Assembly (NCBI GenBank): GCA_023818695.1
Contig: JAMWCF010000001.1
Span: forward strand, 83,306 to 147,305
Length of the DNA stretch: 64,000 nt
Source: Candidatus Omnitrophota bacterium
Lineage (GTDB): Bacteria; Omnitrophota; Gorgyraeia; 1-14-0-20-64-10
Direction of reading: 5' to 3'
Shown piece by piece: positions 2,803-54,871 of this stretch (within the stretch, counting starts at the first letter, position 1; each line of letters begins with the position of its first letter). The position numbers and the translations under genes were made by a program. The notes beneath the pieces were generated by a model that saw only the letters and a list, made by a program, of their open reading frames with translations, searched no databases and was not told the origin of the DNA.

Positions 2803-3083
2803 TCCCCTGTAGCTCAGTTGGTAGAGCAGGTGACTGTCATCGCGCGGCAGCCCCGCCCGGAAACGGCCGGGTGCAACAGCGAGTAAATTCAGGGAACCCC
2901 TATCGCTTGATAGGGCAATCTTGAGCCAAGCCCGCCTTCAATAAGGCGAGGAAGGTGCAGAGACTAGAGACTCGCCGCCTAAATCCCATCGTGGGACATG
3001 GCGATGGTATAGTCCTACCCCCTCGGTAACGAGGGAAGGTCGTAATCACCGGGTCCGAGGTTCGAGCCCTCGCGGGGGAGCCA
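2803..3083 (+). tRNA. tRNA-Asn(GUU) interrupted in the anticodon loop by a 205-nt intron
   Basis: Exon 1 is 2803-2837 (acceptor TCCCCTG, D-arm GCTC/GAGC, anticodon stem GGTGA, CTGT). Exon 2 is 3043-3083 (TAA, TCACC, GGGTC, T-arm CGAGG-TTCGAGC-CCTCG, CGGGGGA, G, CCA). They join to a 76-nt cloverleaf with loop CUGUUAA, closely resembling E. coli tRNA-Asn as I remember it. Confidence 0.85.
2838..3042 (+). ncRNA. group I self-splicing intron (IC3-like, bacterial tRNA-intron type), no ORF
   Basis: The 5' exon ends in U (2837) and the intron ends in G (3042). Exon CUGU (2834-2837) can pair with intron GCAG (2847-2850), giving P1 with a U-G wobble at the splice site. Core strings aaattcaggga, gagccaagc, gaaggtgcagagactaga (2951-2968) and tatagtcc (3008-3015) match the Azoarcus/Anabaena tRNA intron cores as I recall them. 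There is a terminal GNRA hairpin ccctcgGTAAcgaggg. Confidence 0.8.
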
Positions 3084-3480: not shown

Positions 3481-4662
3481 TCAGATGAACGATGAGAGTT
3501 GCCTGATGAGAGAGGGAAGCGGCAGGACAGTGATGGTGAGATCTGCGTGGCGTCGCGTGAACGCGCGATCTGCGTCCTGGGCGACCAGAAAGTTCTGGCC
3601 CTTGGGGTAGGCATGGCGAAATGACCGCAACCCGGCGAGATCCGGATCACCCGACGACCATTTGCATTCGATGGCGATGGGGTCGCGGCCGCGCGGTGCC
3701 AGCACAAAGTCTACCTCATGATCATGCTTGTCACGCCAGTACCGGATGTCACGCAGCTGGAGGCAGCCTTGCAGTTCGTTGAGCACGAAATGCTTCCACA
3801 GCAGTCCGAAGTCTTCCCGCCGAAGCTGATGCCAGCCACGGTGGTAGCAGACAAAGCCTGTATCGAAGGCGTACACCTTAGGAGCCGAGACGATTTCAGT
3901 GGAACGATGCGTGCTGAACGGACGGATCACATGCGCGACCAGGGTGGTTTCCAGCGCTTTGAGGTAGTTCCGGATCGTCCCATGGGCGACCTCGCATTCC
4001 TTGGCGAATTTCTGCGCCTGGAAGATCCCGGCGCTCCGGGCCATCAGGAGTTCAGCAAACCGCTGGAACGAATCCCGACGTTCCAGCCGGAAGAGCTCCT
4101 GGATGTCTTTGGCCCAGTAGGCGTCCATCCACTCCTGGAAGTCGCGCTCCGGCAGGTCTCGAGAAAGGAAGAACGGCGGCAATCCCCCGCGAAGCAACCG
4201 GTGTTCGAGCCGCTCGTAGTGGAAATCCAACAGATCGGCCAGGATCATGGGCGTCAACCAGAGCACGGTTTTCCGTCCGGTGAGCGTATCCCGGAATTTG
4301 CGGGAGGCGCCGAGGGTCGAGGAGCCGGTCGCCAGGATGCGGACAGTCGGGAAATGATCAGCCGCGATCTTGAGCACTTGGGCCGGGTCGCGCAATCGAT
4401 GGATCTCATCGAGCACCACGCGTTTGCCCTTCATGTCTGCGAGGAAGCCCTCGGGATCTTCCAGGAGGCGTCGCACACGGGGGATTTCGCAATCGAAGTA
4501 TTCCACATCTCCCAGGCTATGGGCGAGCGAGGTCTTTCCTGTCCGCCGTACCCCGGAAAGCCAGAGAATGGAGCGGCGCTGCCAACCGTTCTCGATCTCC
4601 TTAAGCCAGTGTTTCCGTTTGACGAGCTGTTCCATCAGGAATAACATTACCATATAGTTCAA
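3481..4662 (-). CDS. AAA-type ATPase with DUF4143-like C-terminal domain
   Basis: Walker A GVRRTGKTSLAHSL, Walker B-like VVLDEIH. The overall layout matches the widespread ATPase/DUF4143 (COG1373-like) family often found on mobile islands. Confidence 0.75.
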   Translation of the reverse strand: MNYMVMLFLMEQLVKRKHWLKEIENGWQRRSILWLSGVRRTGKTSLAHSLGDVEYFDCEIPRVRRLLEDPEGFLADMKGKRVVLDEIHRLRDPAQVLKIAADHFPTVRILATGSSTLGASRKFRDTLTGRKTVLWLTPMILADLLDFHYERLEHRLLRGGLPPFFLSRDLPERDFQEWMDAYWAKDIQELFRLERRDSFQRFAELLMARSAGIFQAQKFAKECEVAHGTIRNYLKALETTLVAHVIRPFSTHRSTEIVSAPKVYAFDTGFVCYHRGWHQLRREDFGLLWKHFVLNELQGCLQLRDIRYWRDKHDHEVDFVLAPRGRDPIAIECKWSSGDPDLAGLRSFRHAYPKGQNFLVAQDADRAFTRRHADLTITVLPLPSLIRQLSSFI

Positions 4663-4844
4663 CTATTTGCAATCATGATGATATATAGAACACGTCCATT
4701 GACTGGCGTTTCGAGCCGTGGAGCATACCCATCGGCGCCTGCCGCTCTGGCTCGGCGCAAGCTGCGACCTCATAAGGAACGCGCGCGGATGGGAGTGAGG
4801 TAAGCCCGGCATGGTACGAGAGAGGCCGAACCGTGTTGTAAACA

Positions 4845-4869
4845 GGTTCGATCCCTAGGAGGGGAGCTA
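4845..4869 (+). repeat. degenerate copy of the tRNA-Asn 3' end (possible decayed att site)
   Basis: ggttcgatccctaggaggggagcta versus tRNA 3059-3083 ggttcgagccctcgcgggggagcca: 20/25 identical. There is no foldable T-arm or acceptor partner, so it is not a tRNA. Confidence 0.4.
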
Positions 4870-5529
4870 ATACATCCTCTCATCAAACCGAGAGGATACA
4901 GAAGACCCGCCAGAGCGACCCTTTTTAGGGTTGCCTGGCGGTGTTTTTATTTCAGGCAGGTTGTAGAACGAGATGCTGATCTTCGACGGGTCTTTGTGAT
5001 AGACGATTTTTTTGATAAGCAGATGCACCAAGTCCCGCTGTTTTTCAAAGGGCAGAACGTCAAGAACCGCCCCAAAGTATTGAAGATTCTGGCAGACGAC
5101 CGCAGGGTCAATGACCTTCTGTTTTTCTTTGGCCATTTCTTCGTCAATCTCGGCCAGCTTGGTTTTCAGCGTTTCCCGTTGCCCGTCCAGGACAAGCAGT
5201 TTTTCCTGAAGGATGGCGAATTTCTTTTTCCCAATGGCCTTCATAAGCGGGGCGGCCTCTCGGTCTACTTGCTGAAGCCGAGCCACGATTCGGTTCCGCT
5301 CAGCCCGAAGCTCAGGGATTCGCTTTTTGGCCATCTTCACGGCCAACGCTGTGATTTTTTCCACCAAGTCTTGACGCTCGGATAAGAAGCGCAGTCGCTC
5401 TATCACCAAAGCGTCCAACGCCCTGGCCGAAATGCGTCTGATTGAGCAAGCTGTCTTGTCGGCATGACCGACTTTCGTGCATTGATAATAGAGATAGGTC
5501 TTTGAATTGCTCCCCGTTTGAACTGGACT
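4867..5529 (-). pseudogene. large serine recombinase, C-terminal fragment only (catalytic N-terminus missing)
   Basis: The frame is open from 5529. It reads ...YLYYQCTKVGHADKTACSIRRISARALDALVIERL (zinc-ribbon region), then a long coiled coil (track ORF 4867..5418). No resolvase catalytic domain lies upstream. The IS3 remnant abuts it. Confidence 0.6.
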
Positions 5530-5571
5530 TTAGAACAAGAGAGAATGGGTTCAGTGCAGACGGAGGTCAAG

Positions 5572-6412
5572 ATGGCGCAATGACGCAAATGGGATTCTAA
5601 GACCAAAGCGCTCATCGTGCTCCAGGGGTTGAAAGGCAAGCCGGTGGCGGAGCTGTGCACCGAGCACCAGATCAGCCAGGTCCAGTTCTACCAGGGGCGC
5701 GATCAATTCCTGGCCAACGCTCCCAAGCTGTTCGAGCTGCCTTTAGCCACCCAGCGGGAAGCCCGCTTGGCGCACGAAAACGCCAAGCTCCGTTCCCTCG
5801 TGGGGAGCTGACGCTGGAGTTAAAAAAACTCGACGAGGTGCTCGCGTGAGACACCGCACCTCGGTCCAGGTCGTCCAGCGAAACCACGGATTGCTCCAGC
5901 GCATCCAGGCGCTTAAGGCCGAGCGCCCCTTCTGGGGCTACCGGCGCATCTGGGCCTACCTGAAGTTCGTGGATCGGCTGGCCGTCAACAAGAAACGGGT
6001 TCTGCGGCTGATGCGCCAAGCCGATCTGCTGGTCAAGCCCAACCGGAGGCTCCGCCAGCAGTTTCCGGAGGGCGCTCGAGGTCACGATGTACACCTTATG
6101 TCCGACAACGGCTGCCAGCCGACCTCGGTGGTCTTCATGGCTGCTTGCAACCGCCTGGACGTTTACCAGACCTTCACCAGCTACAACAACCGCCGGGGCA
6201 ACGCCGACACTGAGCGGATGGTCCGGACGATCAAAGAGGAGCTAATCTGGCTGCGGGAGTGGACGAGTCCCTTCGAGCTGGCCGAGGCACTCGAAGCCTG
6301 GATCAAGCGGTACAATGCCGAGTACGTGCACTCGGCCCTGGGTTACAAGAGTCCGATTCAATGTGAATTGGCTTTTAAAAACAGCCGCCAGACTCAGTTC
6401 CTCCCAGCTTGA
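5572..6412 (+). mobile_element. IS3-family insertion sequence remnant (orfA/orfB both disrupted)
   Basis: orfA-like MAQ-TGA(5581)-RKWDSKTKALIVLQGLKGKPVAELCTEHQISQ..., with an extra frame change before GELTLELKK. An A7 slippery run lies at ~5822-5828. orfB (5846..6412) keeps the N-terminal and C-terminal integrase-core flanks (ERPFWGYRRI..., YNNRRGNADTERMVRTIKEE, YNAEYVHSALGY) but lacks the central DDE region. Confidence 0.7.
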
Positions 6413-6455
6413 AAAATGGGGAGCATTACACCCGTTACCGAATACAATAAGCTCC

Positions 6456-6794
6456 ATGACACGCAAGGAGTTTGAAGAGGCGGTCCGTGACGCGGCGGGA
6501 AGTCTCCCGAAGCGTTTCAGGGACAGGCTTGAAAATGTGGAGATCGTGGTTGAGGAGGGGACGGCCGACGGGAAATTTTTGGGGCTCTATCAGGGGATTC
6601 CCCACACCGAGAGGGGAACCGGTTACAGCGGAGTTCTTCCCGATAAGATCACCCTCTTCAAGAGAGCCATTGAGGCGGAGTGCGAAGCCAACGGGTTGGA
6701 TATCCGGCAGGAGATCGCGCGCGTTGTCCGGCATGAAATCGCGCATCACTTCGGGATTGACGATGGCAGACTGGAGGATCTCGGCGCCTATTGA
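6456..6794 (+). CDS. metallopeptidase family protein (Zincin_1/DUF1025-like)
   Basis: Start taken at ATG 6456 inside track ORF 6315..6794. Contains LENVEIVVEE, GLYQGIPHTERG, LPDKITLFKRAI and HEIAHHFGIDDGRLEDLG (HExxH). Confidence 0.8.
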   Translation: MTRKEFEEAVRDAAGSLPKRFRDRLENVEIVVEEGTADGKFLGLYQGIPHTERGTGYSGVLPDKITLFKRAIEAECEANGLDIRQEIARVVRHEIAHHFGIDDGRLEDLGAY

Positions 6795-6875
6795 AGACTA
6801 GAGGCCGCCGCAGTTTTCCACAAGCGTTTCGCCCATTTCTGCAGGATAATAAGCGGGAAGGGGCGTTTTTCTCGA

Positions 6876-7340
6876 ATGAACAGAAAAGCATTCACCCTTG
6901 TTGAACTGCTGATCGTCGTGGTCATCGTCGCGCTGTTGACGGCGTTCGCGATCCCTTCGCTGGAAGGGATGGTCTGGCAGGGGCGGTATGCCGAGGTCTT
7001 TTCCACATTCGGGACGATTGCTCAAGCCAAGTCAGCGTATTTCGCCGCCTACGGCACCTATGAAGGGAACCCCCCGTACGATTTCACGGATTGTCTGGCC
7101 GGAAGGGACATCCCGCCGGGATCCACGCGCGTTCAGCAGGATCTGGGAATCAGCATTTCGGACAAGAGCTATTTCCAGTACCTGATCTACCCCAGCGTGG
7201 AGTATCCTGCCGAGAACGCCCTTTACTTCAGGCAGATTCCGTTCGAGTGGGCCTACCTCTGGGATTATTCAAACGGGCAGTGGGCCGCTTACGGCGGCGA
7301 GGACAGCCCCGCGAAGAGGTATTTCAGGCCGCCGTCATAA
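6876..7340 (+). CDS. prepilin-type N-terminal cleavage/methylation domain protein (pilin/pseudopilin-like)
   Basis: MNRKAFTLVELLIVVVIVALL is a class III signal peptide with the conserved FTLxE. Confidence 0.8.
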   Translation: MNRKAFTLVELLIVVVIVALLTAFAIPSLEGMVWQGRYAEVFSTFGTIAQAKSAYFAAYGTYEGNPPYDFTDCLAGRDIPPGSTRVQQDLGISISDKSYFQYLIYPSVEYPAENALYFRQIPFEWAYLWDYSNGQWAAYGGEDSPAKRYFRPPS

Positions 7341-7355
7341 CCAAAAGGATGAGAG

Positions 7356-7676
7356 GTGACACCCATGAGTTTGCTTGCTGAAGTCAGTATTTTCCCGCTG
7401 GACAAGGGAGAGAGCGTGGGTGACTACGTCGCCCGTTCCATCGGGATCATCGAAAAGAGCGGTCTTGCCTACAAGGTCGGCGCGATGGGGACCTGCATCG
7501 AGGGGGAGTGGGACGAGGTGATGGGGGTCATCAAGGCCTGCTTCGAGGCGTTGCGGAGGGACTGCCATCGCGTGGAGATCCAGATCAAGGCGGATTACCG
7601 CGCCGGCAGAAGCGGCTGCCTGGAAGGAAAGGTCAGGAGCGTGGAGAAGCGCCTCGGCCATGCGGTCTGCAAGTAG
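7356..7676 (+). CDS. MTH1187/YkoF-family thiamine-binding protein (DUF77)
   Basis: AEVSIFPLDKGESVGDYVARSI..SGLAYKVGAMGTCIEGEWDEVM is the typical family pattern. Confidence 0.75.
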   Translation: MTPMSLLAEVSIFPLDKGESVGDYVARSIGIIEKSGLAYKVGAMGTCIEGEWDEVMGVIKACFEALRRDCHRVEIQIKADYRAGRSGCLEGKVRSVEKRLGHAVCK

Positions 7677-7974
7677 GCGGGCAGGCGGTAAGATGCAACT
7701 TGTTTTTCTTTTGATCCTGGCGACGGCAGGGTCCCTGTTCGCCGCGGGACCGTCGGCCGGGGAGGATTAACGCTAGCCCCGTCTCCTTCGATGCCAGCGT
7801 TACTGGCGTAGCTAGATTTTTATACGCCCTTATGATCTGGTTCTTTTGTCGTATATTTTCAACATATATAGCTTGAAAGACGACACTCTGTAGAATAGTT
7901 AATTCTTCAACGTCTCATCCACTTAAATAGACTGATTCCAAGTTAACAGATCTTATTCCTGCTCATCGATCTCC

Positions 7975-7990
7975 TGGCACGTAAACTGCT
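7975..7990 (+). promoter_or_regulatory. sigma-54 (-24/-12) type promoter candidate upstream of the PEP-CTERM gene
   Basis: TGGCACGtaaaCTGCT versus consensus TGGCACG-N4-TTGCW (GG-N10-GC spacing exact). It lies 31 nt upstream of ATG 8021. Confidence 0.5.
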
Positions 7991-8020
7991 TATTTCAATT
8001 ATGCAAGAGGGGGCGAAATT

Positions 8021-8821
8021 ATGTCTCGTTTTATTATGAGAATAGTGGTTGTTATCGTTGTTTTTCTGGCCGCGGCGGCGGGGGGGCCGGAATCCGCTGA
8101 TGCCGTCCTTATCACTTTTGACTTTAATCCGCTTAAAGATGAGGACAACAACACCAAGGTTCAGACCTACATGAACAACCTCCTGGCCGGCATTTTGCCG
8201 GGCGAGACGGTGACTGTGACAGGTTCTAAAGCGGAGAAGAACTACACCGGCGACGGTCACGCGGTGGGGCCGGTCAACGGCAACAGCGTCAAGTCCGAGA
8301 CCTTGGGCAACACGGATTACGGCGTTCCGCATGGCGGCGCCAATGACACCTTCCTCGTCAATAAGAGCAACTCCGACAGGATCACGATGATCTTTTCCTT
8401 CCCGGTCTATTCGGTCTCCTTCGACTACGAAATCTTTCCGGATGGGACCCTTCCGGACGGGACCAAAACAACCAACGCCAACCCGAATTGGCCGGACTTC
8501 AAGTTCGCGGCGGATGGAACGGTCTACTTCGTCACGCTGGGCGTTATGCCGGGGACCAACGGCACCTACCTGCATTCCCCGGCCAGCGGGAAGAACAAGG
8601 CGGAGAAGGCCCCTCAATACCTGGGGGAAAGCGGCGACTGGTTCTTTGAGGACGGGGTCATGAAGCTGGAGTTTATCGACTGGCCCCGGACGATCGGGAT
8701 CGACAACCTCGAGATCTGCACCGATCAGCCGCAGCCGGTCGTACCGGAACCGGGGTCCCTTCTGCTCTTGGGTAGCGGCCTGGTGGGGATGGGGCTGCGT
8801 TTCCGCAGGAAGAAGGGGTAG
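8021..8821 (+). CDS. PEP-CTERM sorting-domain secreted protein
   Basis: N-terminal signal peptide. C-terminus is VPEPGSLLLLGSGLVGMGLRFRRKKG (PEP motif + TM + basic tail). Confidence 0.85.
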   Translation: MSRFIMRIVVVIVVFLAAAAGGPESADAVLITFDFNPLKDEDNNTKVQTYMNNLLAGILPGETVTVTGSKAEKNYTGDGHAVGPVNGNSVKSETLGNTDYGVPHGGANDTFLVNKSNSDRITMIFSFPVYSVSFDYEIFPDGTLPDGTKTTNANPNWPDFKFAADGTVYFVTLGVMPGTNGTYLHSPASGKNKAEKAPQYLGESGDWFFEDGVMKLEFIDWPRTIGIDNLEICTDQPQPVVPEPGSLLLLGSGLVGMGLRFRRKKG

Positions 8822-8857
8822 AAGAGTTCGGCCCAGAAAGAGATTTTTTCAGAGTAT

Positions 8858-8897
8858 AATAAGGCCTGTCGGCATTGCCGATAGGCCTTATTGTTTT
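8858..8897 (+). terminator. intrinsic terminator after the PEP-CTERM gene
   Basis: ~16-bp near-perfect hairpin aataaggcctgtcgg / ccgataggccttatt followed by gtttt. Confidence 0.7.
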
Positions 8898-8910
8898 GAA
8901 CGGAGGGGCG

Positions 8911-9267
8911 ATGGGCGGGAGACTTGACCGGAAAACGCTGGAGGAGATGAAGGGCCGGCTGGAGAGACGGCTGGCGGAACTGACGAAATCGCTGGGCAAG
9001 CACGATAAGCTGACTAGCGAACCGCTGCCCAGCGATTGGGAGGAGGCCTCTTCCATCAAGCCGGAGATGGATGTCGTCGAGTCGCTTGAACGAGGTGAAG
9101 CCAAAGAGATTCGGATGATTCGCGACGCACTGGAGAGGATGAAGGAGGGGACTTACGGGATCTGCGCCGGCTGCGGCAATGGGATCCCTGTGGAGAGGTT
9201 AATGGCCCGGCCCGACTCGGAGCTATGCGTCTCCTGCAAGGAGATTCGAGAGAGAAAAGGCCGGTGA
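8911..9267 (+). CDS. DksA/TraR-family C4 zinc-finger protein
   Basis: CAGCGNGIPVERLMARPDSELCVSC (CxxC-x17-CxxC). Start moved to ATG 8911 (RBS ggagggg) because the track start at 8875 lies inside the terminator hairpin. Confidence 0.75.
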   Translation: MGGRLDRKTLEEMKGRLERRLAELTKSLGKHDKLTSEPLPSDWEEASSIKPEMDVVESLERGEAKEIRMIRDALERMKEGTYGICAGCGNGIPVERLMARPDSELCVSCKEIRERKGR

Positions 9268-9277
9268 CCGTCCGATC

Positions 9278-9385
9278 TTATTTGGACTTTTGGTCTTTCG
9301 TGAAGATCTTCCAGAAGGAGTAGAAGGTCAGCCAGGTGATGAACGCGGCGCTCAAGATCATAAAGATCCAGCCTGAGGGTTTCAT
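9278..9385 (-). CDS. MetS-like small subunit of the NSS transporter (35 aa, not in ORF track)
   Basis: MKPSGWIFMILSAAFITWLTFYSFWKIFTKDQKSK has a single TM and a basic tail. Its ATG overlaps the transporter stop (ATGA at 9382-9385), which implies translational coupling. Confidence 0.5.
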   Translation of the reverse strand: MKPSGWIFMILSAAFITWLTFYSFWKIFTKDQKSK

Positions 9386-10986
9386 TTGGGCACCTTATGC
9401 TGGATGCGGTGTTTCTTCTGCCAGGCCAGGAAGACGAGGAAAATCAGCGTCAAGAGAATGGTTGTCATCAGGAAGCGGGCGAACCAGATGTAGGGGTAAT
9501 CTCCGGGCTGAACGCCCTTCATGAAGATGATTTTGAGCCCGTCCTGCGCGAACCAGGCAACCAGCAGGATGCCCAGGTAGATGGGAGTGACGTACTGCAT
9601 CACGGGGTAGAAGAATTTCGGGATCCGCATGTCGGCCCCCATTTCGATTTCCTTCCAGGCGTTCTTCGGTTTAAAAATCCAGATAAAAAGGATGATTTCT
9701 ACCAGCGCGAAAAGGACGACGCCGAACGTCCCGAGCCAGAAGTCCATCTCATCCAGAAAACCGTGCTTGAGGAAGAAGACGATAGGGATGACAAGGAAGA
9801 GGCACAGCCCTCCGACCATCAGTGCGGCTTTCTGCCGGCTCAACGTAAACTCATCCTGAAGGAAGGCCATCATCGGCTGGGCGAGGGCGATGGAGGAGAG
9901 AAGGCCGGCGATGAAGAGCAGAAAGAACCACAGCGCTCCGAAGAGCTGTCCGCCGGGCAGTTTTTGGAAGATGAGGGGCAGGGCGCAGAAGCCCAGGTCA
10001 AAGGCGCCGCTCTGGGCGATGACCTGCGTTTGCGCCAGCCCGAAGTAGGCCACGGTGACCGGGATGGCGATGAACCCGCCGATCAGGACTTCCGAGAATT
10101 CATTGGTGGCGACCGTTGCCAGTCCGGAGACGACCACGTCGTCCTTTTCCGAGAGATAGCTCGCGTAAGTCTGGATGCAGCCGAACCCAACGCTCAATGT
10201 GAAGAAAATCTGCCCGGTGGCAGCCAGCCAGACCTTCGTGTCCTTCAGCGCTTCGAAATTCGGATTCCACATGAATCCGAGGCCGTTCAGGATGCTCCTG
10301 TCCGGGTAGGCGGGGTCCGGGGTCCCCAGCGTGGCAACGCGCCACACAAGAACGACGCCGATGATGAAGGTAAGGGGGACTCCCCAGGTGGCGACCGCTT
10401 CGATCCCCTTGACGATCCCGCGTGAGAGGATCCAGGTGAGGATGGCGATGGTGATGAAGAGAAAGATCAGGGCCGTCGCGTGGCTGTTGAAATATTCGTT
10501 CTGGGCCCTTCCCTGAAAGGCGGCGAGAAAGTCGACCATCTGCTCATGGCCGGGGACGGCGAGATACTGGCCGGTGAGGGAAAATGCGCTGTAAGCGAGC
10601 GTCCAGGAGACGATGTAGTTGTAATAGATTAAAATCCCGAAAGGCAGGAAGATGCCGATCGCCCCGAGGTATTTGGCGAAAGGGTGATTCCAGAGATAGT
10701 GGAACATTCCCGGCGTCGTGCCGTGGCCGTATTTCCCACCGAAGCGGCCGATTCCCCATTCAATCCACATCAAGGGGATTCCGATGAGGATGAAGGCGAT
10801 GAAATAGGGAATCATGAAAGCACCGCCGCCGTTCTGGGCGCATTGGACGGGGAAGCGGAGGAAGTTTCCTATTCCGATGGCGTTGGCCGCCATGGCCAGC
10901 ACGACGCCGATGCGGGTCGCCCACTTTTCGCGCGTCTTGTGCGCGGAAGGATCCTGTTTGTGAGTGACGCGTTCCTTTCTTGCCAT
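9382..10986 (-). CDS. sodium-dependent transporter, neurotransmitter:sodium symporter (NSS/SNF) family
   Basis: WATRIGVVLAMAANAIGIGNFLRFPVQCAQNGGGAFMIPY is the NSS TM1 signature. The protein has ~12 hydrophobic segments. Confidence 0.9.
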   Translation of the reverse strand: MARKERVTHKQDPSAHKTREKWATRIGVVLAMAANAIGIGNFLRFPVQCAQNGGGAFMIPYFIAFILIGIPLMWIEWGIGRFGGKYGHGTTPGMFHYLWNHPFAKYLGAIGIFLPFGILIYYNYIVSWTLAYSAFSLTGQYLAVPGHEQMVDFLAAFQGRAQNEYFNSHATALIFLFITIAILTWILSRGIVKGIEAVATWGVPLTFIIGVVLVWRVATLGTPDPAYPDRSILNGLGFMWNPNFEALKDTKVWLAATGQIFFTLSVGFGCIQTYASYLSEKDDVVVSGLATVATNEFSEVLIGGFIAIPVTVAYFGLAQTQVIAQSGAFDLGFCALPLIFQKLPGGQLFGALWFFLLFIAGLLSSIALAQPMMAFLQDEFTLSRQKAALMVGGLCLFLVIPIVFFLKHGFLDEMDFWLGTFGVVLFALVEIILFIWIFKPKNAWKEIEMGADMRIPKFFYPVMQYVTPIYLGILLVAWFAQDGLKIIFMKGVQPGDYPYIWFARFLMTTILLTLIFLVFLAWQKKHRIQHKVPK

Positions 10987-11881: not shown

Positions 11882-14800
11882 TCAAGGCGATGGCGTGGAA
11901 TCACTGCCCGCCATCTCCCGGCTGTCCCTGCTGAACCGGATCGGCTGATGTGCCTTTCGGTCGGTGGATCCCCAGCCGCCGCCGAGCGCTTTGACCAGCA
12001 GAATGGTTGAAGCCATCTGCTGGTTTCTGATCTGCACCGCGGCCCGTTCCGCCTCCAGGCAGGCGCGTCGTGCGTCGATCACCTCCAGATAGTTGACCAG
12101 TCCCTGCGCGTACCGCTCGTTGGAAAGTGAGGCGGCCCGCCGGGCCGCCTCAACGACACGATCCTGGGCTTCGGCTTGTTCCCGCCTTAGACGGAGATTC
12201 ACCAGCGCGTCCTCGGTTTCCCGGATGGCGGTCAGCACCTTTTGTTTGTAAGCCGCGAGGGTCTCCTCGTAGCCGGAGCGGATCGCCCTGAAGTTCGCCA
12301 TATTCCGGCCGACGGCGGTCAGGGGGAAGGAGACGCCCGGGCCGATCGACCAAACCCGGCTGTCCCACGTCAGCACGTCTTTGGAAGAAGGGGTATCGAA
12401 CCCGCCGGAAGCGGTGAGGGTGATTGTCGGGAAAAAAGCGGCCTGCGCGACACCGATCTTGGCGTTGGCGGCGGCCATCCGCCGTTCCGCCTCGGCGATG
12501 TCCGGCCGGCGTTCCAACAAACTGGAGGGCAGGCCGGCCGGGATGGACGGCGGATCGGCGGCCAGCGGCATGAGGGCCAGCTTGAAGCCGGACGCCGGCT
12601 GGCCGCACAAGAGGGCCAGGGCATTCTCCAGTTCGGCCCGACGGCGGGAGAGGTCGATCACCTCGGCTTCCGCGGTGGAAAGCTCCGTCTCGGCCCGGGC
12701 GACATCCAGGTTGTCGCCGATGCCTCCCTCCATCCGTTCGCGCATGACCTCCAGCGCCTCCCTGCGCAGGCCGACCGTTTTCAGGAGGATCGCCCGTTCC
12801 GAATCCAGCGCCTGAAGGGTGAAATAATTCAAAGCGACGTCGGTCGTCAAGATGAGCAGGATGGAGTGGTAGGCCTCTTCAGCGGCGATTGCTTCGGCGC
12901 GCGCCGCTTCAAACGATCGCCGCACCTTCCCCCAGAGGTCGATTTCGTAGCTTAGGTCCAAGGGGATTTTATAATTCTGGTTTTGGATCACCCTGTTGCC
13001 GCTGCCGAAGCCGGAGAGGGAACGGCGGAACCTTTCGTAGGAAGCGCCGGCGGTGACGTTTGGGACGAATCCAGACTGGCTGACCCTCGCCAGGGCGCGG
13101 GCCTGGGTGACGCGGGCCACCGCCGCCTTGAGGTCCTGGTTGGCTTCCACCGCCTGCATCTCCAGCAGGTTCAGTTGGTGATCGCCGAAGATCTCCCACC
13201 AGGGACCGCGGGGCTCCTGGTCCCGCGGCGCCGCCTCCTTCCACTGGACAGCGGAGGGAGGGGTTTTCCACTCGGCCGGCATGGCGATCTCCGGACGGCG
13301 GTAGTTCGGGCCGACGGCGCAGCCGGCCGTCAGAAAGGGAAGGAGCAGAAGAACCGCCGTTCCGGCGGTCGCCCGGGGGAGTTCCAGTTTGCGGCCCCGT
13401 AGCCGGCCGAACAGACGGCTGAAGGTGACGTACATGACCGGGATGATGAACAGCGTCAAGAAGGTGCTGGTCAACATGCCGCCGACCACGACCATGCCCA
13501 GCGGCCTGCGGCTTTCGGCCCCGGCCCCGAAGCCGATGGCGACCGGCAGTGTGCCTGCGAATGTCGAGAAGGCAGTCATCAGAATCGGCCGCAGCCGGAT
13601 CCGGCCGGCCGAGATCATCGCCTCCTGTGCCGATTTGCCGTTGGCCATTTCCTGGTTCGCGAAATCCACGAGCAGGATGCCGTTCTTCGTGATGAGGCCC
13701 AGCAGCAGGAGGATGCCGATCTGGCTGAACAGGTTGATCCCCATCGAGGGGATTCGTGGGACGATCGCCGAAAGGGCTTTCGCGACGGCCGGTGGGTCCG
13801 GCGCGTAATGAGCCCAGCCGTACAACATCGTGCCGAAGATGTTCACTTGCGCCATCAGCCAGAGCAGTCCGAACGCCCCGATCGCGCCAAGGGGGATCGT
13901 CAGCATGACGGTCAGCGGGTGGCTCCAGCTTTCGAACTGGGCCGCGAGGACCAGATAAATGATCATGATCGCCAGCGTGAGAACGAACACCGTGTCCCGG
14001 CTCGCTTCCCGGACATTCCGCGCTTCGCCGGCCCACTCGAAGCGGGCCCCTTCGGGGAGCTCCTTTTTGAGCATCTTCTCGGTCTGGTCCATGACCGTCC
14101 CGATTGCGGCGCCGACGGGGGTCGCTTCGATGGTGGAGGATCGGAATCGGTTGTAATGGTTGATTGCGCTGGGACCGGCGCCGATGGTGTAGGTGGTGAT
14201 GCTGCTTAATTGAATGAGGTCGCCGGCGGCGTTTCGCGCGTACAGCTTTTCAAGGTCGGACGGCGTCAGCCGGGCTTCCCGTTCCAGCTGGACGATCACA
14301 TCGTACTCTTTTCCCTGCAGGTTGATTTTCGCCAGGTCCAGCCCGCCGAAGAGGATCTGCAGGGTCCGGGAGACATCTTCGATGGAGACGCCCAGGGAAG
14401 CGGCCCTGGCTCGGTCGATCTGGACGCGCAGTTCCGGTTTGTCGAGCTGGAACGTCGGCCGGACGTTCATCAGCGTCCCCGTGGCGCGCAGTTTGTTTGC
14501 GATTTTCTGGCTGATTTCGTTGAGCGTCTTCAGGTCCTGGTGCTGGAGGACCAGCTGGAAATTCTGGCCGAACCCGAAACCGATCGCTTTCGGGACGATC
14601 GGGATGGCGATGGCCCCCTCGATGTCGTTGAAAAACTTGCTGCCGAGCCCGTTCGGGCCGGCGATGATGTCTTGGACGGAGCGGTCCCGTTCCTCTTTGA
14701 GCCGGATGAAGGCCAGCCCCTCGTTGGCCCTTCCCACGCTCCCGCGCGCCAGCGCCACGGCGGAGAAATACCCGTCCACCTCCGGTGTTTCCCGGATGAA

Positions 14801-16552
14801 CCCCTCCATCTTCCGGACCATCCGGCTGGTGTATTCGCTGGTGGCTCCTTCCGGCGCGATGGCGATGCAGAAGAGCCGTCCCTTGTCCTCGTCCGGCAGG
14901 AATTCCTTGTCAAGCCGGGTATAGAGGAAAACAGACAGCACGAACGTCAGGGTGCCGATCAGCATCATCAGGCCGGAATGGTTGAGCGACCATCGAAGCC
15001 ATTTGTCGTAGCGGGCCGTCATGTTCGTCAGCCACCGTTCAAAATGGGCGATCAACCCCGATCCGACATGTCCGGGATTCGGCCGCAGCGCGCGGGCGCA
15101 GATCATCGGAGACAGCGTGAGCGAGACGAATGCAGAAACGAGCACGGAGACGGAGATCGTCACGGCGAACTCGACGAACAAGCGGCCGGTCGTGGTCGTC
15201 TGGAATGCCATCGGCAGGAAGATCGCGACGAGCGCCAGCGTTGTGGCGATCACCGCGAACGTGATTTCCCGCATGCCTTTGCGCGCCGCCTCGAACGGGG
15301 GCATCCCTTCATCGATGTGACGGTGAATGTTCTCGACGACGACGATCGTGTCGTCCACCACCTCGCCGAGCGCCAGGACCAGCGAAAGCATGGTGATGAT
15401 GTTGATCGAGTAGCCGAAGAAATAGAGCACGCCGAATGTGGCCACGACCGAAACGGGGATCGTGATGCTGGGCACCAGCGTGGCCCGGAAGTTGTAAAGG
15501 AATACGTAGATCGATATGACGACCAGCACGAACGACATCCACAGCGTTTCCCAGACCTCGGAGATCGCTTTTTCGACGTAAACCGATTCGTCGTAAGGAA
15601 TCGACGTTTCGATCCCCTCGGGCAGCAGCGGCTTGATCCGCTGAAGCTCCTTCTTTACCGCTTTGGCGACGGCGACCGCGTTGGCCTTCGACTGCTTGAT
15701 CACGCCGACGCCGACGGCCGGACGGGAGTTGAACCTGGCTTCCGAATGCTCGTCTTCGACGCCGACGGCCGCGCGCCCGATGTCTTTCAGCGTGACGAGC
15801 GTTGAGCCGTCCCGTTTGATTACGAGGTTGTCGTATTCCTCCGGCGTTTTCATCTGACCCCGCATCTCGATCGAGAGCTCTCTTTGCCGGTTCTCGATCC
15901 GGCCGCTGGGCAGCTCGACGCTCTGCTGACGCAGGGCGTTCTGAACGTCGAGTACGGTCACCCCCCGGGCCGCCATCTTCTCGGAGTCAAGCCACAGCCG
16001 GATGGCGAACCGTTTGGAGCCCCCCAGCAGGATTGAGCTGACCCCAGGCACCGTCTGGAGCCGGTCTTTGATCTGGTTTTCAGCGATCGAGGTCAGCTCA
16101 AGCGTGCTGAACCGGTCGCTGAAGAGCGCGATCCACATCGACGGGCGGGCGTCGGCGTCCTGTTTGGCGACGACCGGTTCCTCGACATCCTCCGGCAGCC
16201 GGCCCCGGACGCGGGAAACTCTGTCCCGCACGTCCTGCGCGGCCAGGTCGACATCGCGGGAGAGGTCGAACTCGACCGTGATGTTGCTGACCTGCTCGCG
16301 GCTTTCGCTCGAAAGGGTCTTGATTCCCTCGATGCTGGTGAGTGCCTCCTCGAGCCGTTCGGTCACCTGGGCCTCGATGACGGCGGCGCTTGAGCCGGGA
16401 TAGACGGTGGTGACCGTGACGATCGGCGGGTCTACGTCGGGGAGTTCCCGGACCGGCAGACGGGACAAACCGACCGCGCCGAAGAGGATGAGCCCCAGAC
16501 TCATCACCGTGGCCAGGACCGGGCGCCGGATACTGACTTCAGGCAGAAGCAT
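11882..16552 (-). CDS. RND efflux permease (AcrB-like, aa 1-~1050) fused in frame to a NodT-type outer-membrane factor lipoprotein (aa ~1078-1556)
   Basis: N-terminus MLLPEVSIRRPVLATVMSL...PDVDPPIVTV is AcrB-like. At the junction, ...IPVMYVTFSRLFGRLRGRKLELPRATAGTAVLLLLPFLTAGC|AVGPNYRRPE carries a lipobox Cys codon at 13319-13321. There is no stop and no ATG/GTG/TTG between the two parts. Confidence 0.8.
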   Translation of the reverse strand: MLLPEVSIRRPVLATVMSLGLILFGAVGLSRLPVRELPDVDPPIVTVTTVYPGSSAAVIEAQVTERLEEALTSIEGIKTLSSESREQVSNITVEFDLSRDVDLAAQDVRDRVSRVRGRLPEDVEEPVVAKQDADARPSMWIALFSDRFSTLELTSIAENQIKDRLQTVPGVSSILLGGSKRFAIRLWLDSEKMAARGVTVLDVQNALRQQSVELPSGRIENRQRELSIEMRGQMKTPEEYDNLVIKRDGSTLVTLKDIGRAAVGVEDEHSEARFNSRPAVGVGVIKQSKANAVAVAKAVKKELQRIKPLLPEGIETSIPYDESVYVEKAISEVWETLWMSFVLVVISIYVFLYNFRATLVPSITIPVSVVATFGVLYFFGYSINIITMLSLVLALGEVVDDTIVVVENIHRHIDEGMPPFEAARKGMREITFAVIATTLALVAIFLPMAFQTTTTGRLFVEFAVTISVSVLVSAFVSLTLSPMICARALRPNPGHVGSGLIAHFERWLTNMTARYDKWLRWSLNHSGLMMLIGTLTFVLSVFLYTRLDKEFLPDEDKGRLFCIAIAPEGATSEYTSRMVRKMEGFIRETPEVDGYFSAVALARGSVGRANEGLAFIRLKEERDRSVQDIIAGPNGLGSKFFNDIEGAIAIPIVPKAIGFGFGQNFQLVLQHQDLKTLNEISQKIANKLRATGTLMNVRPTFQLDKPELRVQIDRARAASLGVSIEDVSRTLQILFGGLDLAKINLQGKEYDVIVQLEREARLTPSDLEKLYARNAAGDLIQLSSITTYTIGAGPSAINHYNRFRSSTIEATPVGAAIGTVMDQTEKMLKKELPEGARFEWAGEARNVREASRDTVFVLTLAIMIIYLVLAAQFESWSHPLTVMLTIPLGAIGAFGLLWLMAQVNIFGTMLYGWAHYAPDPPAVAKALSAIVPRIPSMGINLFSQIGILLLLGLITKNGILLVDFANQEMANGKSAQEAMISAGRIRLRPILMTAFSTFAGTLPVAIGFGAGAESRRPLGMVVVGGMLTSTFLTLFIIPVMYVTFSRLFGRLRGRKLELPRATAGTAVLLLLPFLTAGCAVGPNYRRPEIAMPAEWKTPPSAVQWKEAAPRDQEPRGPWWEIFGDHQLNLLEMQAVEANQDLKAAVARVTQARALARVSQSGFVPNVTAGASYERFRRSLSGFGSGNRVIQNQNYKIPLDLSYEIDLWGKVRRSFEAARAEAIAAEEAYHSILLILTTDVALNYFTLQALDSERAILLKTVGLRREALEVMRERMEGGIGDNLDVARAETELSTAEAEVIDLSRRRAELENALALLCGQPASGFKLALMPLAADPPSIPAGLPSSLLERRPDIAEAERRMAAANAKIGVAQAAFFPTITLTASGGFDTPSSKDVLTWDSRVWSIGPGVSFPLTAVGRNMANFRAIRSGYEETLAAYKQKVLTAIRETEDALVNLRLRREQAEAQDRVVEAARRAASLSNERYAQGLVNYLEVIDARRACLEAERAAVQIRNQQMASTILLVKALGGGWGSTDRKAHQPIRFSRDSREMAGSDSTPSP

Positions 16553-16564: not shown

Positions 16565-17629
16565 TCATGGGCTGGCCTTCTCCTCGTACCGGACCTGCAC
16601 CTTGCCGCCGGGCCGGACTTTCTGCGTCCCTTCGATCACGACGGTTTCCCCTTCCGAGACACCGGAGAGGATCTCCACCGCGTCGGCCAGCCGCGCGCCG
16701 GTTTGGACCTGGCGAATCTGTGCGGAGGAGGTTTCATCCACGACGAACACGGAGGCAGCATCCCCCTGGAGCGTCAAGGCGATTTCAGGGATGACGACCG
16801 CCTTCTCCCGGACCTGGAGGATCAGGTTGAGGTTCACGAACATGCCGCGGCGCAGTTTCCCTTCGGGGTTGGGGACCCGGGCCTTGACCAGCGCGGTCCG
16901 GGTCGCTTCATCGATTTGAGGATCGATGAAATAAACCGTTCCGGTGAATCGTTCATCCGGGTAAGCCGCCACCGCGACTTCCACCTCCTGCCCCTCCTGC
17001 AGCCGGGAGAGATGCCGTTCCGGCACCCTGAACTCCGCTTTCATCGGGTCGGGATGCAGGAGGGTGGTCAGCGGGGTCCCCGCGGCGATAAACTGGCCGG
17101 GGCTGACCAGGCGGGCCCCGGTCACGCCGTCGAACGGCGCGGCGATGTCGGCGTCCTCCAGACGGGCCTTCAGCAGGGAAACGGTTGCCTGGGCCGCTTC
17201 AAAGGCGGCGACGGCCTGATCGACCTCCTGTTTGGAAACAGCCCGCGTTTGCGAGAGGGCCTCATAGCGGCGTCGGTTCGAGTCAGTCAGCTTCAGGTTG
17301 GCCTGCGCTTCGGCCAGCTGGGCTTCCAGTTTCCGCCGGTCGATCCGCAGCAGCAGCTGGCCCTCCTTCACCGTTTGGCCCTCTTCGAAAAGAATCTCCT
17401 CGATCACGCCCTCGATCTGCGATTTGATCTCCACCCACTCATTGGCTTCGAGGGATCCGGTCAACGAGATGGTGTCCTGGATGGGACGGATTTCGGCCTT
17501 GAAGCCGACCACCTGCACGGGCATCCCGCCGGATGGCGGACCTCCAGCTTTGCCGCAGCCGCCTGCAAGCCAGAGCAGGGGTATCGCGGCCAGAGCGAAA
17601 AGGGATCCATTGTCCGGACGGATATGCAT
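16565..17629 (-). CDS. RND efflux periplasmic adaptor (membrane fusion protein)
   Basis: Lipoprotein-like N-terminus (LLWLAGGCGK). Coiled-coil hairpin plus barrel-sandwich pattern typical of the HlyD/AcrA family. Sits 12 nt upstream of the RND gene. Confidence 0.85.
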   Translation of the reverse strand: MHIRPDNGSLFALAAIPLLWLAGGCGKAGGPPSGGMPVQVVGFKAEIRPIQDTISLTGSLEANEWVEIKSQIEGVIEEILFEEGQTVKEGQLLLRIDRRKLEAQLAEAQANLKLTDSNRRRYEALSQTRAVSKQEVDQAVAAFEAAQATVSLLKARLEDADIAAPFDGVTGARLVSPGQFIAAGTPLTTLLHPDPMKAEFRVPERHLSRLQEGQEVEVAVAAYPDERFTGTVYFIDPQIDEATRTALVKARVPNPEGKLRRGMFVNLNLILQVREKAVVIPEIALTLQGDAASVFVVDETSSAQIRQVQTGARLADAVEILSGVSEGETVVIEGTQKVRPGGKVQVRYEEKASP

Positions 17630-17641: not shown

Positions 17642-18118
17642 TTATGTGTTCGGGGTCGGCCGGGACAAGCCGTCCACGAGCTTGTTGACGATATCCATAT
17701 ACTGGGAACGTTCAGAATCGGTCAGCGGTTTGAACAGCTTCCGAACGCTTTTCCGGCGCTGTTTGTAGACTTCATCGATGATGTCGCGCCCCTTCGGCGT
17801 GATGGTCACGTGGACCGCGCGCCGGTCCTCTTCGCTGCGGGACCGTCTGACCAGACCGTTCTTGACGAGCCGGTTCACCAGGCCGGTTGCGGCGGGAAAA
17901 GTCATGTTGAGCCCCTTGGCCAGCTCGTTCATCTGGCAGGAGCCGCGTCTTTTCAGGCACTCCAGCGCCCAGAACTGGGGAAGGGTGATGTCCCCCCGCG
18001 ACAGCACGTTGCTCTCGTGCCGCATGAGGGCCCTGGCCAGGATCGCAATCTTCTCCGTCCACCACGCGGCGAACTCTTCCAGCGTTACTTTCGGCATGGG
18101 GTATCCATTTATTTGCAT
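17642..18118 (-). CDS. MarR-family transcriptional regulator (first gene of the efflux operon)
   Basis: ITLPQFWALECLKRRGSCQMNELAKGLNMTFPAATGLVNRLVKNGLVRRSRSEEDRRAVHVTITPKG is a winged HTH. Start taken at ATG 18118 (alternative 18097). The upstream 122 aa of the track ORF look non-coding. Confidence 0.8.
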   Translation of the reverse strand: MQINGYPMPKVTLEEFAAWWTEKIAILARALMRHESNVLSRGDITLPQFWALECLKRRGSCQMNELAKGLNMTFPAATGLVNRLVKNGLVRRSRSEEDRRAVHVTITPKGRDIIDEVYKQRRKSVRKLFKPLTDSERSQYMDIVNKLVDGLSRPTPNT

Positions 18119-18194
18119 GCCATATATTTCATCATGTGAAGTATACAGGATGAGAAGTAAGTAATCAACCCCGACCTGAAAAGTAACGGAGCTT

Positions 18195-39230: not shown

Positions 39231-40118
39231 ATGCGGCCTTTTAAGCTTATGGAAACAGACCGGCTGCATCAATCCTATCGCTATTGCGAGTGGATCGCTT
39301 ACCATCATTACGAAAACTTCCCGGTTGCCTCGCTGATTCTTCCGAAAGAAAAGCGTTCGCACGTGGCGGCGGTCTACGCTTTCGCCAGATCAGCCGACGA
39401 TTTCGCCGATGAAATCCGCTATCAGGCCGATTCCCTGGAGCTGCTGGAAGCCTGGAGGGCTGCTCTGTGGGCCTGTCAGAACGGAGGGGGAGTCAAGCTG
39501 GTTTCCCACCCGATCTTTATTGCCCTGGCTCACTCGATCACAACCTGCGGTCTGCCGGTGCAGCTTCTCGATGATCTGTTGACCGCTTTCCGCATGGATG
39601 TGACGAAGAGACGGTATGAGAACTGGCAGGAGCTCCTGGACTACTGCCGCTTTTCCGCGAACCCGGTCGGGCGGCTTGTGCTGACGATTTTCGGCTACCA
39701 GGACCCTGAACTCCACCTCCTCTCGGACCATATTTGCACTGGACTGCAGCTGGCCAACCACTGGCAGGATCTGCGGATCGATATGGAAAAAGACCTCCTT
39801 TATATTCCCAGGGATCTGCAGCGCCGGTTTGGTGTCGATGAGGAGGAGTTTCGCGGCGCCATGCAGGGTCGTATGTCGGACCGGTTCCGGGCTCTGATGG
39901 CCGAACTGGTCGACAGGGCGGACGCGCTTTTCAAAGCCGGAGCTGCCTTGCCGGGAAAAGTGGAGGGGCCTCTGCGCCTGGAGTTAAAGCTGACCTTGCT
40001 GGGAGGGCGGGCCGTTCTGGAACGGATCCGCCAGGTCGACTATGATGTTTTCCGGCAGCGCCCGGTTCTTTCCCCGCTGGCGAAATTGAAACTGCTGGGA
40101 CTTGGCCTTGTATCGTGA
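39231..40118 (+). CDS. hpnC: squalene synthase HpnC (hydroxysqualene synthase)
   Basis: SYRYCEWIAYHHYENFPVAS, AVYAFARSADDFADE, ANHWQDLRID. Alternative start at ATG 39249. Confidence 0.85.
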   Translation: MRPFKLMETDRLHQSYRYCEWIAYHHYENFPVASLILPKEKRSHVAAVYAFARSADDFADEIRYQADSLELLEAWRAALWACQNGGGVKLVSHPIFIALAHSITTCGLPVQLLDDLLTAFRMDVTKRRYENWQELLDYCRFSANPVGRLVLTIFGYQDPELHLLSDHICTGLQLANHWQDLRIDMEKDLLYIPRDLQRRFGVDEEEFRGAMQGRMSDRFRALMAELVDRADALFKAGAALPGKVEGPLRLELKLTLLGGRAVLERIRQVDYDVFRQRPVLSPLAKLKLLGLGLVS

Positions 40119-40980
40119 CGATTCCTTCCGTTACTGCGCGTGGTTGACGCGCGTTTCCCGCAGCAATTTCGCGATGGGACTGAAAGTCCTGCCCAGGCCC
40201 CAGAGGGAGGCGATGGAGGTCGTCTATGCTTTCTGCCGGGCGGTGGATGATGTGGTGGATAAACAGGCAGGCAACCCGGTCGTTTTCGACGCGGAGGAGG
40301 CGGGCAGAGAATTGGACCGATGGCGCGGTGAGCTGCATGCCGGTTATCCGACCCACCCGATCGCCGTGGCGCTGACGCAGGTCATCCGGGATTACCGGAT
40401 TCCTCTTTCCTATTTTGAGGATTTGATCGCCGGCTGCCGGATGGATCTGGTCCAGCGCCGTTACGCGACCTTCCAGGAGCTGGAGGTCTACTGCCGGCAT
40501 GTTGCCTCCGTGGTCGGGCTGATCTCCATCCGGGTTTTCGGCTGCCGGCATCAGGCCTCCGAGGATTACGCCGTGAATCTTGGGATCGCACTGCAACTGA
40601 CGAACATCCTGCGAGATCTTAAAGCCGATCTGGCGCGCGGGAGGGTTTATCTGCCGCAGGATGAACTGAAGCGGTTCGGCTACACCGAGAGCGACTTGTT
40701 CTCCTGCCGTTATTCGGAGCCGTTTTTGCGGATGATGTCTTTTCAGTGCGCGAGGGCGCGCGCCTTCTTCCGGAAAGCCCATGAAGCCCTTCAGGCGGCC
40801 GGCGAACAGAGGAAGCTTCTTCCCGCCCAGATGATGGGTGCGGTCTATTCGCAGATCCTCAACCGGATCGAGAAACTCCGGTACGATGTTTTTTCAAGCC
40901 GGATCACCGTGCCGCGAGCCCGGCAGACGGCGACGGCTCTGGTCCTTCTGGTCAATGGCGGGCGCTGGAACTACGCATGA
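40102..40980 (+). CDS. hpnD: presqualene diphosphate synthase HpnD
   Basis: FRYCAWLTRVSRSNFAMG, VVYAFCRAVDDVVD, LQLTNILRDLKADL. Confidence 0.85.
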   Translation: MALYRDDSFRYCAWLTRVSRSNFAMGLKVLPRPQREAMEVVYAFCRAVDDVVDKQAGNPVVFDAEEAGRELDRWRGELHAGYPTHPIAVALTQVIRDYRIPLSYFEDLIAGCRMDLVQRRYATFQELEVYCRHVASVVGLISIRVFGCRHQASEDYAVNLGIALQLTNILRDLKADLARGRVYLPQDELKRFGYTESDLFSCRYSEPFLRMMSFQCARARAFFRKAHEALQAAGEQRKLLPAQMMGAVYSQILNRIEKLRYDVFSSRITVPRARQTATALVLLVNGGRWNYA

Positions 40981-43197: not shown

Positions 43198-43200
43198 ATA

Positions 43201-50544: not shown

Positions 50545-50555
50545 GCAGGGGACTG

Positions 50556-51218: not shown

Positions 51219-51225
51219 ATCCTTT

Positions 51226-53183: not shown

Positions 53184-53185
53184 AC

Positions 53186-53848: not shown

Positions 53849-53861
53849 GGAGAAAACGGCA

Positions 53862-54866: not shown

Positions 54867-54871
54867 GAAAG

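Follow-up and report, generated by a model that had tools for sequence, protein, structure and literature searches.

On the minus strand of a 64,000-nucleotide stretch of DNA from a Candidatus Omnitrophota bacterium (NCBI assembly GCA_023818695.1, contig JAMWCF010000001.1, positions 83,306 to 147,305 of the forward strand; hereafter called the window), a single uninterrupted open reading frame (ORF) of 1556 codons (window 11882..16552), beginning with ATG, encodes the permease together with the outer-membrane factor (OMF) of a resistance-nodulation-division (RND) efflux pump. We consider its product to be a precursor polyprotein that unites two subunits of the same tripartite RND pump and would be split by the enzymes Lgt and LspA at an internal lipobox, and we give this reading a probability of about 65%. 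Tripartite efflux pumps represent a central machine of antibiotic resistance, and to our knowledge their assembly has always been described as the meeting of three separately made proteins across two membranes. The fused gene and its two moieties are located as follows:

11882..16552, minus strand: fused gene for the RND permease, an internal lipoprotein signal and a NodT-type OMF, with the stop codon at 11882-11884
13418..16552, minus strand: RND (HAE1) permease moiety, aa 1-1045, with 12 transmembrane (TM) helices, assigned from profile and structure matches
11885..13321, minus strand: mature NodT-type OMF, aa 1078-1556, assigned from TIGR01845 and the alignment with OprM

The permease half (aa 5-1052) scored 994 bits against the Pfam profile ACR_tran (cut-off 28), its aa 8-1045 matched positions 5-1028 of the 1029 positions of the NCBIfam RND permease profile NF000282, and TIGR00915 was covered over positions 5-1036 of 1050. 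Because its scores of 1006, 879 and 839 bits stayed below the cut-offs that NCBIfam sets for the subfamilies (1250 and 940 bits), we regard it as a member of a divergent subfamily. Among the solved structures, MexB, MtrD and AcrB were matched with E-values of 1e-161 to 1e-171. The proton-relay motifs are kept as VDD in TM4, TKN in TM10 and RLRPILMT in TM11 (in the translated stretches EVVDDTIVVVEN, ITKNGILLVDFA and IRLRPILMT), which we take to be the equivalents of D407/D408, K940 and R971 of AcrB. An insertion of about 30 residues (YGWAHYAPDPPAVAKALSAIVPRIP, window 13733-13834, minus strand, aa ~907-940) lies between TM9 and TM10 and interrupts the Pfam and PDB matches; since it is found in part of the subfamily, in fused as well as unfused proteins, it has no relation to the fusion.

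The OMF half (aa 1072-1526) matched positions 4-460 of the 460 positions of TIGR01845 with 406 bits (cut-off 210) and the structures of OprM, OprN, OprJ and CusC with E-values of 1e-52 to 4e-61. Counted from Cys1078, its residues 1-453 align to residues 1-453 of mature OprM (1wp1_A, E 4e-61), whose residue 1 is the lipidated Cys and forms the lipid anchor at the outer-membrane end. Judging by these full-length matches, both halves are complete and look functional. The initial annotation had described an AcrB-like permease running into a NodT-type OMF within a single 1556-aa ORF, and the ORF list and the profile matches bear this out. The sequence definitions of the HAE1 RND permease and the NodT OMF families both apply to the fused protein, with the exception of the N-terminal signal that belongs to NodT OMF lipoproteins: its signal-like segment is internal and follows after 1060 residues of permease and linker. 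The elements around this segment are the following:

13421..13465, minus strand: end of TM12 (TFLTLFIIPVMYVTF, aa 1030-1044), including Met1040, assigned from hydropathy
13373..13420, minus strand: basic cytoplasmic linker (SRLFGRLRGRKLELPR, aa 1045-1060) with 6 Arg/Lys and 1 Glu
13322..13372, minus strand: hydrophobic segment (ATAGTAVLLLLPFLTAG, aa 1061-1077) with a hydropathy peak of 2.2, which is predicted to form a 13th TM helix (N-in, C-out)
13319..13333, minus strand: lipobox L-T-A-G-C (aa 1074-1078), predicted Lgt/LspA site with the cut at Gly1077/Cys1078, assigned from the lipoprotein pattern

The translation across the junction reads ...VTFSRLFGRLRGRKLELPRATAGTAVLLLLPFLTAGC-AVGPNYRRPE, or in a longer reading ...TFLTLFIIPVMYVTFSRLFGRLRGRKLELPRATAGTAVLLLLPFLTAGC-AVGPNYRRPE, and the codon of Cys1078 occupies 13321..13319, exactly as had been quoted before. 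A lipobox-like LTAGC behind a signal-peptide-like stretch had been claimed as well, and both were recovered: L-T-A-G-C satisfies the lipoprotein pattern applied ([RK]-{DERK}(6,20)-[..]-[LVIAMFTG]-[IVMSTAGCP]-[AGS]-C) and is followed by Ala at position +2, and the 17 residues of aa 1061-1077 are all uncharged (range in the family, 14-18). The length of the linker was 15 aa by script count and 16 residues (aa 1045-1060) by direct reading. With 6 Lys/Arg and 1 Glu in this linker, 17 uncharged residues and the site A-G/C, the elements expected of an internally split polyprotein are present. As judged from its sequence, the hydrophobic segment corresponds to what was once the h-region of the OMF signal peptide. 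Cys1078 also aligns with the lipobox Cys of stand-alone orthologues. A programmed frameshift ending the permease was considered, as a TGA occurs in the +1 frame just before the lipobox, and was set aside because no slippery site accompanies it.

The C-terminus of RND permeases is cytoplasmic according to the established topology of AcrB. Because the OMF is bound for the periplasm and exactly one hydrophobic segment lies between the two moieties, this segment should span the membrane N-in/C-out as a 13th helix. In the mechanism we propose, the ribosome would deliver a single chain, whose 12-TM permease part would enter the inner membrane and have its C-terminus on the cytoplasmic side, and the basic linker (aa 1045-1060) would remain in the cytoplasm. 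The segment aa 1061-1077 would insert N-in/C-out as the 13th helix and begin the Sec-dependent export of the OMF, upon which Cys1078 of L-T-A-G-C would receive a diacylglycerol moiety from Lgt, and signal peptidase II (LspA) would cleave between Gly1077 and Cys1078. The freed lipidated OMF, carrying Ala at +2, would then move to the outer membrane like other NodT/OprM-type channels, while the extra helix would stay with the permease, where it may have acquired a role of its own, e.g. by packing on the TM domain as AcrZ does on AcrB. The outcome would be an obligatory 1:1 synthesis of permease and channel; in the assembled pump the two are present in a 3:3 ratio, which is matched by such a synthesis. 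We infer the 13th-helix topology, the lipidation, the cleavage and the trafficking to the outer membrane, and the comparative data reported below support the 13th helix and the release of a lipidated OMF by signal peptidase II that the initial annotation had suggested.

The fusion is real and no assembly artefact, as confirmed by the presence of an identical 1556-aa protein in the independently assembled Logan assemblies of SRR27730035 and SRR27730036 and of the identical annotated protein on a 697-kb contig of an NCBI metagenome-assembled genome (MAG) named 'Candidatus Omnitrophica'. Two neighbouring genes might instead have been joined by an indel introduced in sequencing or assembly, or by a mutation that inactivated them recently, and three observations would fit this explanation: relatives with overlapping RND stop and OMF start exist, in which a single indel error could mimic a fusion, the exact fusion of the window is confined to one 90%-identity cluster, and its sister lineage (operon L081) is unfused. 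However, the same sequence was obtained independently from two runs and in a MAG, the junction differs from that of the unfused sister by many substitutions, including the loss of the Shine-Dalgarno (SD) motif and the ATG, instead of by one indel, and the fused architecture is kept in more than 80 other clusters. Moreover, the two halves are of full length, free of stop codons and evolve at normal rates. In Tajima relative-rate tests of the window against L081 with L083 as outgroup, we counted 51 vs. 38 unique changes for the OMF half (p 0.17) and 90 vs. 108 for the RND half (p 0.20); by this measure, neither half is decaying and no acceleration of the rate is apparent. Taken with the identical assemblies, this makes an artefact or a pseudogene extremely improbable.

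To compare the junction with those of its relatives, the best 120 hits of a search in 5.8 billion proteins were used as the homologue set. Of these proteins, 83 are fused, being longer than 1400 aa (1417-1562 aa) and containing both ACR_tran and OEP domains. They represent 90%-identity clusters and are 48-63% identical overall to the window protein, and those with organism names derive almost entirely from Omnitrophica/Omnitrophota MAGs. The initial annotation had proposed to compare orthologs for fused versus separate versions; the comparison yielded both states, with the 83 fused proteins on one side and the sister operon L081 on the other, which contains a stop and an ATG at the junction and consists of two separate genes at this place.

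In the 70 lipobox-type fusions, which are 51-63% identical to the window protein, the elements follow each other in the same order throughout (70/70), namely the end of TM12 (FVIPVVYV), a K/R-rich linker, an uncharged hydrophobic stretch, [Gly/Ser]-Cys and the mature N-terminus of NodT (GPxYxxP), and [G/S]-Cys itself is kept in 70/70. The linkers of the fused family have median values of 14 aa, 5 K/R and 0 D/E, and their richness in K/R and poverty in D/E fits the positive-inside rule. Linker and hydrophobic stretch are conserved in character and not in sequence across the fusions, like ordinary signal peptides. A second, more distant fused clade (13 proteins among P0103-P0120, 48-50% identity) lacks a Cys at that position and contains sites of the signal peptidase I type instead (ARA/E, AQA/A, VRA/E, ASA/E), with small residues at -3/-1 in 13/13. 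An example is the gene at 5001-9581 of locus L085 (...SLPVRA/EDP), which encodes a non-lipoprotein OMF half and belongs to an operon of the order MarR-adaptor-fusion. The retention of two types of peptidase site at one position is expected if processing occurs. The one named relative that nests within the second clade is unfused and comes from a Lentisphaerae MAG. The 90%-identity cluster of P0112, a protein of the same clade, also contains members of 317, 552 and 714 aa carrying the JGI name 'outer membrane protein', which may be contig-end fragments or may result from gene callers splitting the fusion at an internal start.

When a library clustered at 50% identity was queried with the junction and the OMF, the best 150 hits included 3 full-length fused representatives and about 6 fused fragments, the others being stand-alone OMFs of about 470 aa. 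This indicates that the fusion is rare overall and well established in this group. The metagenome profile query provided at least 13 usable loci. A scan of genome contigs with generic RND motifs returned no Omnitrophota among the matches listed, and its adjacent-gene loci served as 'normal' comparators. Junction-spanning matches in Acidobacteriota, Verrucomicrobiota, Bacteroidales, Myxococcota and Gemmatimonadota were rejected as candidates, since they turned out to be ordinary adjacent genes in different frames.

The closest RND relatives of the window protein are unfused. Protein P0070 from operon L081 is 73% identical over the RND part, compared to 64-68% for fused proteins, and in a neighbour-joining tree of this part it pairs with the window protein (P0001) in 98/100 bootstraps. 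The fused proteins P0003 and P0034 each pair with an unfused sister as well (100/100 bootstraps), and the large fused clade and the clade with signal peptidase I sites are separate from each other. At least three fusions at the tips together with two fused clades indicate that fusion took place repeatedly and independently. The separate OMF gene of L081 starts with an ATG that overlaps the RND stop (ATGA), and in further unfused relatives the distance between RND stop and OMF start ranges from -23 to +12 nt. Because stop and start overlap or are at most 12 nt apart, one small indel is enough to fuse the frames. Taking tree and gene arrangement together, the fusion in the window is shown to have an independent origin from an overlapping two-gene arrangement.

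Over 450 residues from the Cys, the OMF half of the window protein and the stand-alone OMF of L081 align without gaps and are 64% identical. In the DNA alignment, CCGGGCGACCGCC-GGA-ACG of the window is placed opposite CCGGAGGAACGCC-ATG-ACG of L081, which identifies the position of the former start:

13361..13363, minus strand: GGA codon of Gly1064, aligned with the ATG start of the L081 OMF in the DNA alignment

The GGAGG and ATG of the sister read GGGCG and GGA in the window, and the ancestral SD motif and start codon of the OMF are shown by this comparison, made between the window and L081, to be both lost. A 5-nt gap further upstream in the RND tail has a size that fits the shift of the RND frame into the OMF frame, although its placement is uncertain at such divergence. 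A general SD contrast between fused and unfused genes was dropped, because a clear SD motif is present only in some unfused OMF genes (L081, L083) and others use the overlap of stop and start.

These data also bear on the alternative that translation initiates within the long ORF, for example at Met1040 or a non-canonical codon, to produce a separate OMF, with the fusion protein as a by-product. Some fused homologues do contain a Met just before the hydrophobic stretch (MRRAPG... in P0003, KKKKMNLKEP... in P0004, and further P0012, P0040, P0043, P0061 and P0062), which amounts to 11/51 of the members matching the strict pattern. Initiation at the ATG of Met1040 would yield a signal of 38 residues with a basic n-region, and gene calls of 317-714 aa that bear the name 'outer membrane protein' are clustered with P0112. 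However, since there is no stop codon, ribosomes translating the permease continue into the OMF, and the fused chain is made anyway. Between 13322 and 13400, i.e. in the 26 codons before the Cys, the window lacks any ATG, GTG or TTG in frame; this part of the initial annotation held, whereas its statement that only a CTG is available there did not, as we found three in-frame CTGs (13387, 13348 and 13333). The closest canonical in-frame start upstream is the ATG of Met1040 (13435-13433), which is located inside TM12 and replaced by Val in almost all relatives. A Met in the linker is absent from most fused proteins, the ancestral SD motif and ATG are mutated in the window, and no SD-like motif precedes any of the in-frame starts, themselves sporadic, in eight fused loci. 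Regarding this evidence, we consider separate production of the OMF by internal initiation to be unlikely.

The other alternative to be weighed against processing at the lipobox is that the chain is never cut, so that the segment would be a permanent 13th helix and the OMF, still tied to the inner membrane, would either work in this state or be inert. In the fused proteins, the median length of the uncharged stretch is 16 residues vs. 14 in 102 stand-alone OMF signals (p about 8e-7), and the difference of about 2 residues could also fit a permanent anchor. Stretches of at least 20 residues are rare in both sets (<2% of the fused proteins), and the stretch in the fused proteins has thus kept the character of a signal peptide and is only slightly longer. 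The uncut chain is further favoured by precedent, as we know of no characterised action of LspA after a polytopic protein or at an internal site of one, and a literature search for an internal lipobox or related wording found nothing. Against it, Cys1078 corresponds to mature residue 1 of OprM without any linker, and because there is no spacer, a channel that is held at the inner membrane could not extend to the outer one. A permanent anchor needs neither the Gly/Ser-Cys that is invariant in 70/70 nor the AxA of the second clade, and the OMF half evolves at the rate of the stand-alone orthologue. We give an uncut, permanently anchored chain little credence; in view of the invariant [G/S]-Cys, the parallel AxA clade and the loss of independent start signals, processing is the most economical reading.

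Besides the longer stretch and the lack of a precedent, several further observations count against processing by Lgt and LspA. The lipobox of the window has Thr at -3, which is less usual than Leu, although the pattern permits it and T or A is found at -3 in other fused members as well. In 19/70 of the lipobox-type fusions, a residue N, Q, F or M at -2 breaks the strict lipoprotein pattern, although [G/S]-C is kept in all of them. The window fusion is without a close fused relative, the closest fused protein being 62% identical; conservation of the exact junction is for this reason not demonstrable, and the case for its function is built on analogy to the other fused lineages. Finally, the window contains no lgt, lspA or lol genes. 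In favour of processing, canonical lipoprotein signals (...LLSGC) are present at the N-termini of stand-alone OMFs from close relatives, and the lipoprotein pathway thus appears to work in this group.

In comparison to known systems, the pump is functionally of the MexAB-OprM type and resembles MexAB-OprM and AcrAB-TolC in that a MarR-type regulator is followed by the full set of three components in their customary operon order. In those systems, permease and channel are separate polypeptides, and the OMF carries an N-terminal signal of its own and often has a separate promoter or a distant locus (tolC), whereas in the window both are encoded by one ORF with an internal signal after 12 TM helices. 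Further counterparts, from related uncultured bacteria, are the unfused MarR-MFP-RND-OMF operons (MFP, membrane fusion protein) L081 with P0070 and L083 with P0075, the latter assigned to Omnitrophica by NCBI, which consist of orthologous genes in the same order and encode a nearly identical mature OMF N-terminus (CAMGPNYQRPSVEMPTEWKTAADSVQWKEAAP). They differ from the window by a stop codon, an SD motif and an ATG between RND and OMF (with an ATGA overlap or a 12-nt gap), all three of which are missing in the window. The nearest precedent in mechanism known to us is FbcH of Bradyrhizobium japonicum, reportedly a cytochrome b/c1 precursor in which signal peptidase I cleaves at an internal signal (work attributed to Thony-Meyer et al., about 1989-1991). 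It likewise combines a polytopic inner-membrane protein ending in the cytoplasm with an internal signal and an exported partner in the same complex, the two being separated by a signal peptidase. It differs from the window protein in the use of signal peptidase I and in that both products stay at the inner membrane, whereas signal peptidase II, lipidation and another membrane are predicted here; the fused clade P0103-P0120 with its signal peptidase I sites comes closer to FbcH as an analogue.

Subunits of RND machines have been combined in one polypeptide in engineered AcrA-AcrB fusions (PMC4754349), and subunits of the RND superfamily are found in one polypeptide in natural SecDF fusions, according to a survey of tripartite pumps that appeared in Chemical Reviews in 2021 (PMC8277102). 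Unlike the window protein, the partners in these fusions share a membrane or compartment and are uncleaved, and in none of them is a transporter of the inner membrane linked to a channel of the outer membrane. A natural RND-OMF fusion is not mentioned in the available part of that survey (PMC8277102), and our full-text literature searches found no description of one, in line with the initial annotation, which knew of no characterised case. The sequences themselves are already public, and JGI labels some of them with both family names; the novelty lies in the recognition and explanation of the architecture and not in the data. Taking all parts together, we hold it to be somewhat more probable than its opposite that the window encodes a natural polyprotein from which Lgt and LspA separate a 12-TM transporter and an outer-membrane lipoprotein channel, that neither an action of signal peptidase II after a polytopic protein nor a natural RND-OMF fusion would have been known before, and that this solution evolved repeatedly in Omnitrophota, with a signal peptidase I parallel in the second clade.

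The fused proteins offer a natural test of the substrate range of Lgt and LspA, extending it to internal sites after many TM helices. A fixed 1:1 synthesis in one place may be selectable, at the cost of sharing the channel among pumps. In practical terms, the gene may serve as a ready-made construct for the stoichiometric co-expression of pump components. Because the NCBI pipeline names these fusions of about 1500 aa either 'permease' or 'outer membrane subunit', pump inventories of Omnitrophota are miscounted.

The fused gene is the last gene of a minus-strand operon of the order MarR - adaptor - RND::OMF, whose other features are:

18140..18168, minus strand: sigma-70-like promoter match TTGATT-17-TATACT, 5' of the MarR gene, assigned by consensus match only
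17642..18097, minus strand: MarR-family regulator of 151 aa, first gene of the operon, assigned from Pfam MarR and also called in the Logan contigs
16565..17629, minus strand: periplasmic adaptor (membrane fusion protein) of 354 aa, assigned from TIGR01730 RND_mfp with 294 bits (cut-off 95)

The promoter match is probably the promoter of the operon. Around the RND/OMF junction, nothing resembling a promoter was detected. The stop codon of the adaptor gene lies 12 nt upstream of the ATG of the fused gene. The order MarR-MFP-RND is also present in the unfused L083 and the fused L085. The next gene after the fused gene encodes a TerC protein on the opposite strand, and the remainder of the window is ordinary chromosome.

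Some features elsewhere in the window were recorded in addition. A gene for tRNA-Thr(CGU) at 2803-3083 (plus strand) has its anticodon loop split by a 205-nt group I intron, which matched Rfam RF00028 over the full model at 2828-3036 with 64 bits; ARAGORN detected this tRNA only with introns allowed and no other tRNA in the window. Just downstream are a gene for an AAA_14/DUF4143 ATPase (3481-4662, minus strand) and a transposase remnant with HTH_21 and rve_3 domains (5846-6412, plus strand), and the region 3481-6412 may represent the scar of a small mobile element. A c-di-GMP-I riboswitch aptamer (RF01051, 58 bits) was found at 60330-60433 (plus strand), about 315 nt 5' of an ORF for a LexA-like repressor (60749-61411, LexA_DNA_bind and Peptidase_S24), which is an unusual pairing. 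A hopanoid cluster with two squalene-synthase-like genes and genes for an amine oxidase, DXS and squalene-hopene cyclase directly adjoins phosphonate-type genes, the whole occupying 39231-47074 (plus strand) and 47772-58331. The phosphonate-type genes code for a fusion of phosphoenolpyruvate (PEP) mutase with a nucleotidyltransferase, a split thiamine pyrophosphate (TPP) decarboxylase, an aminotransferase and two CDP-alcohol phosphatidyltransferases, and together with the hopanoid genes they suggest a membrane-lipid island.

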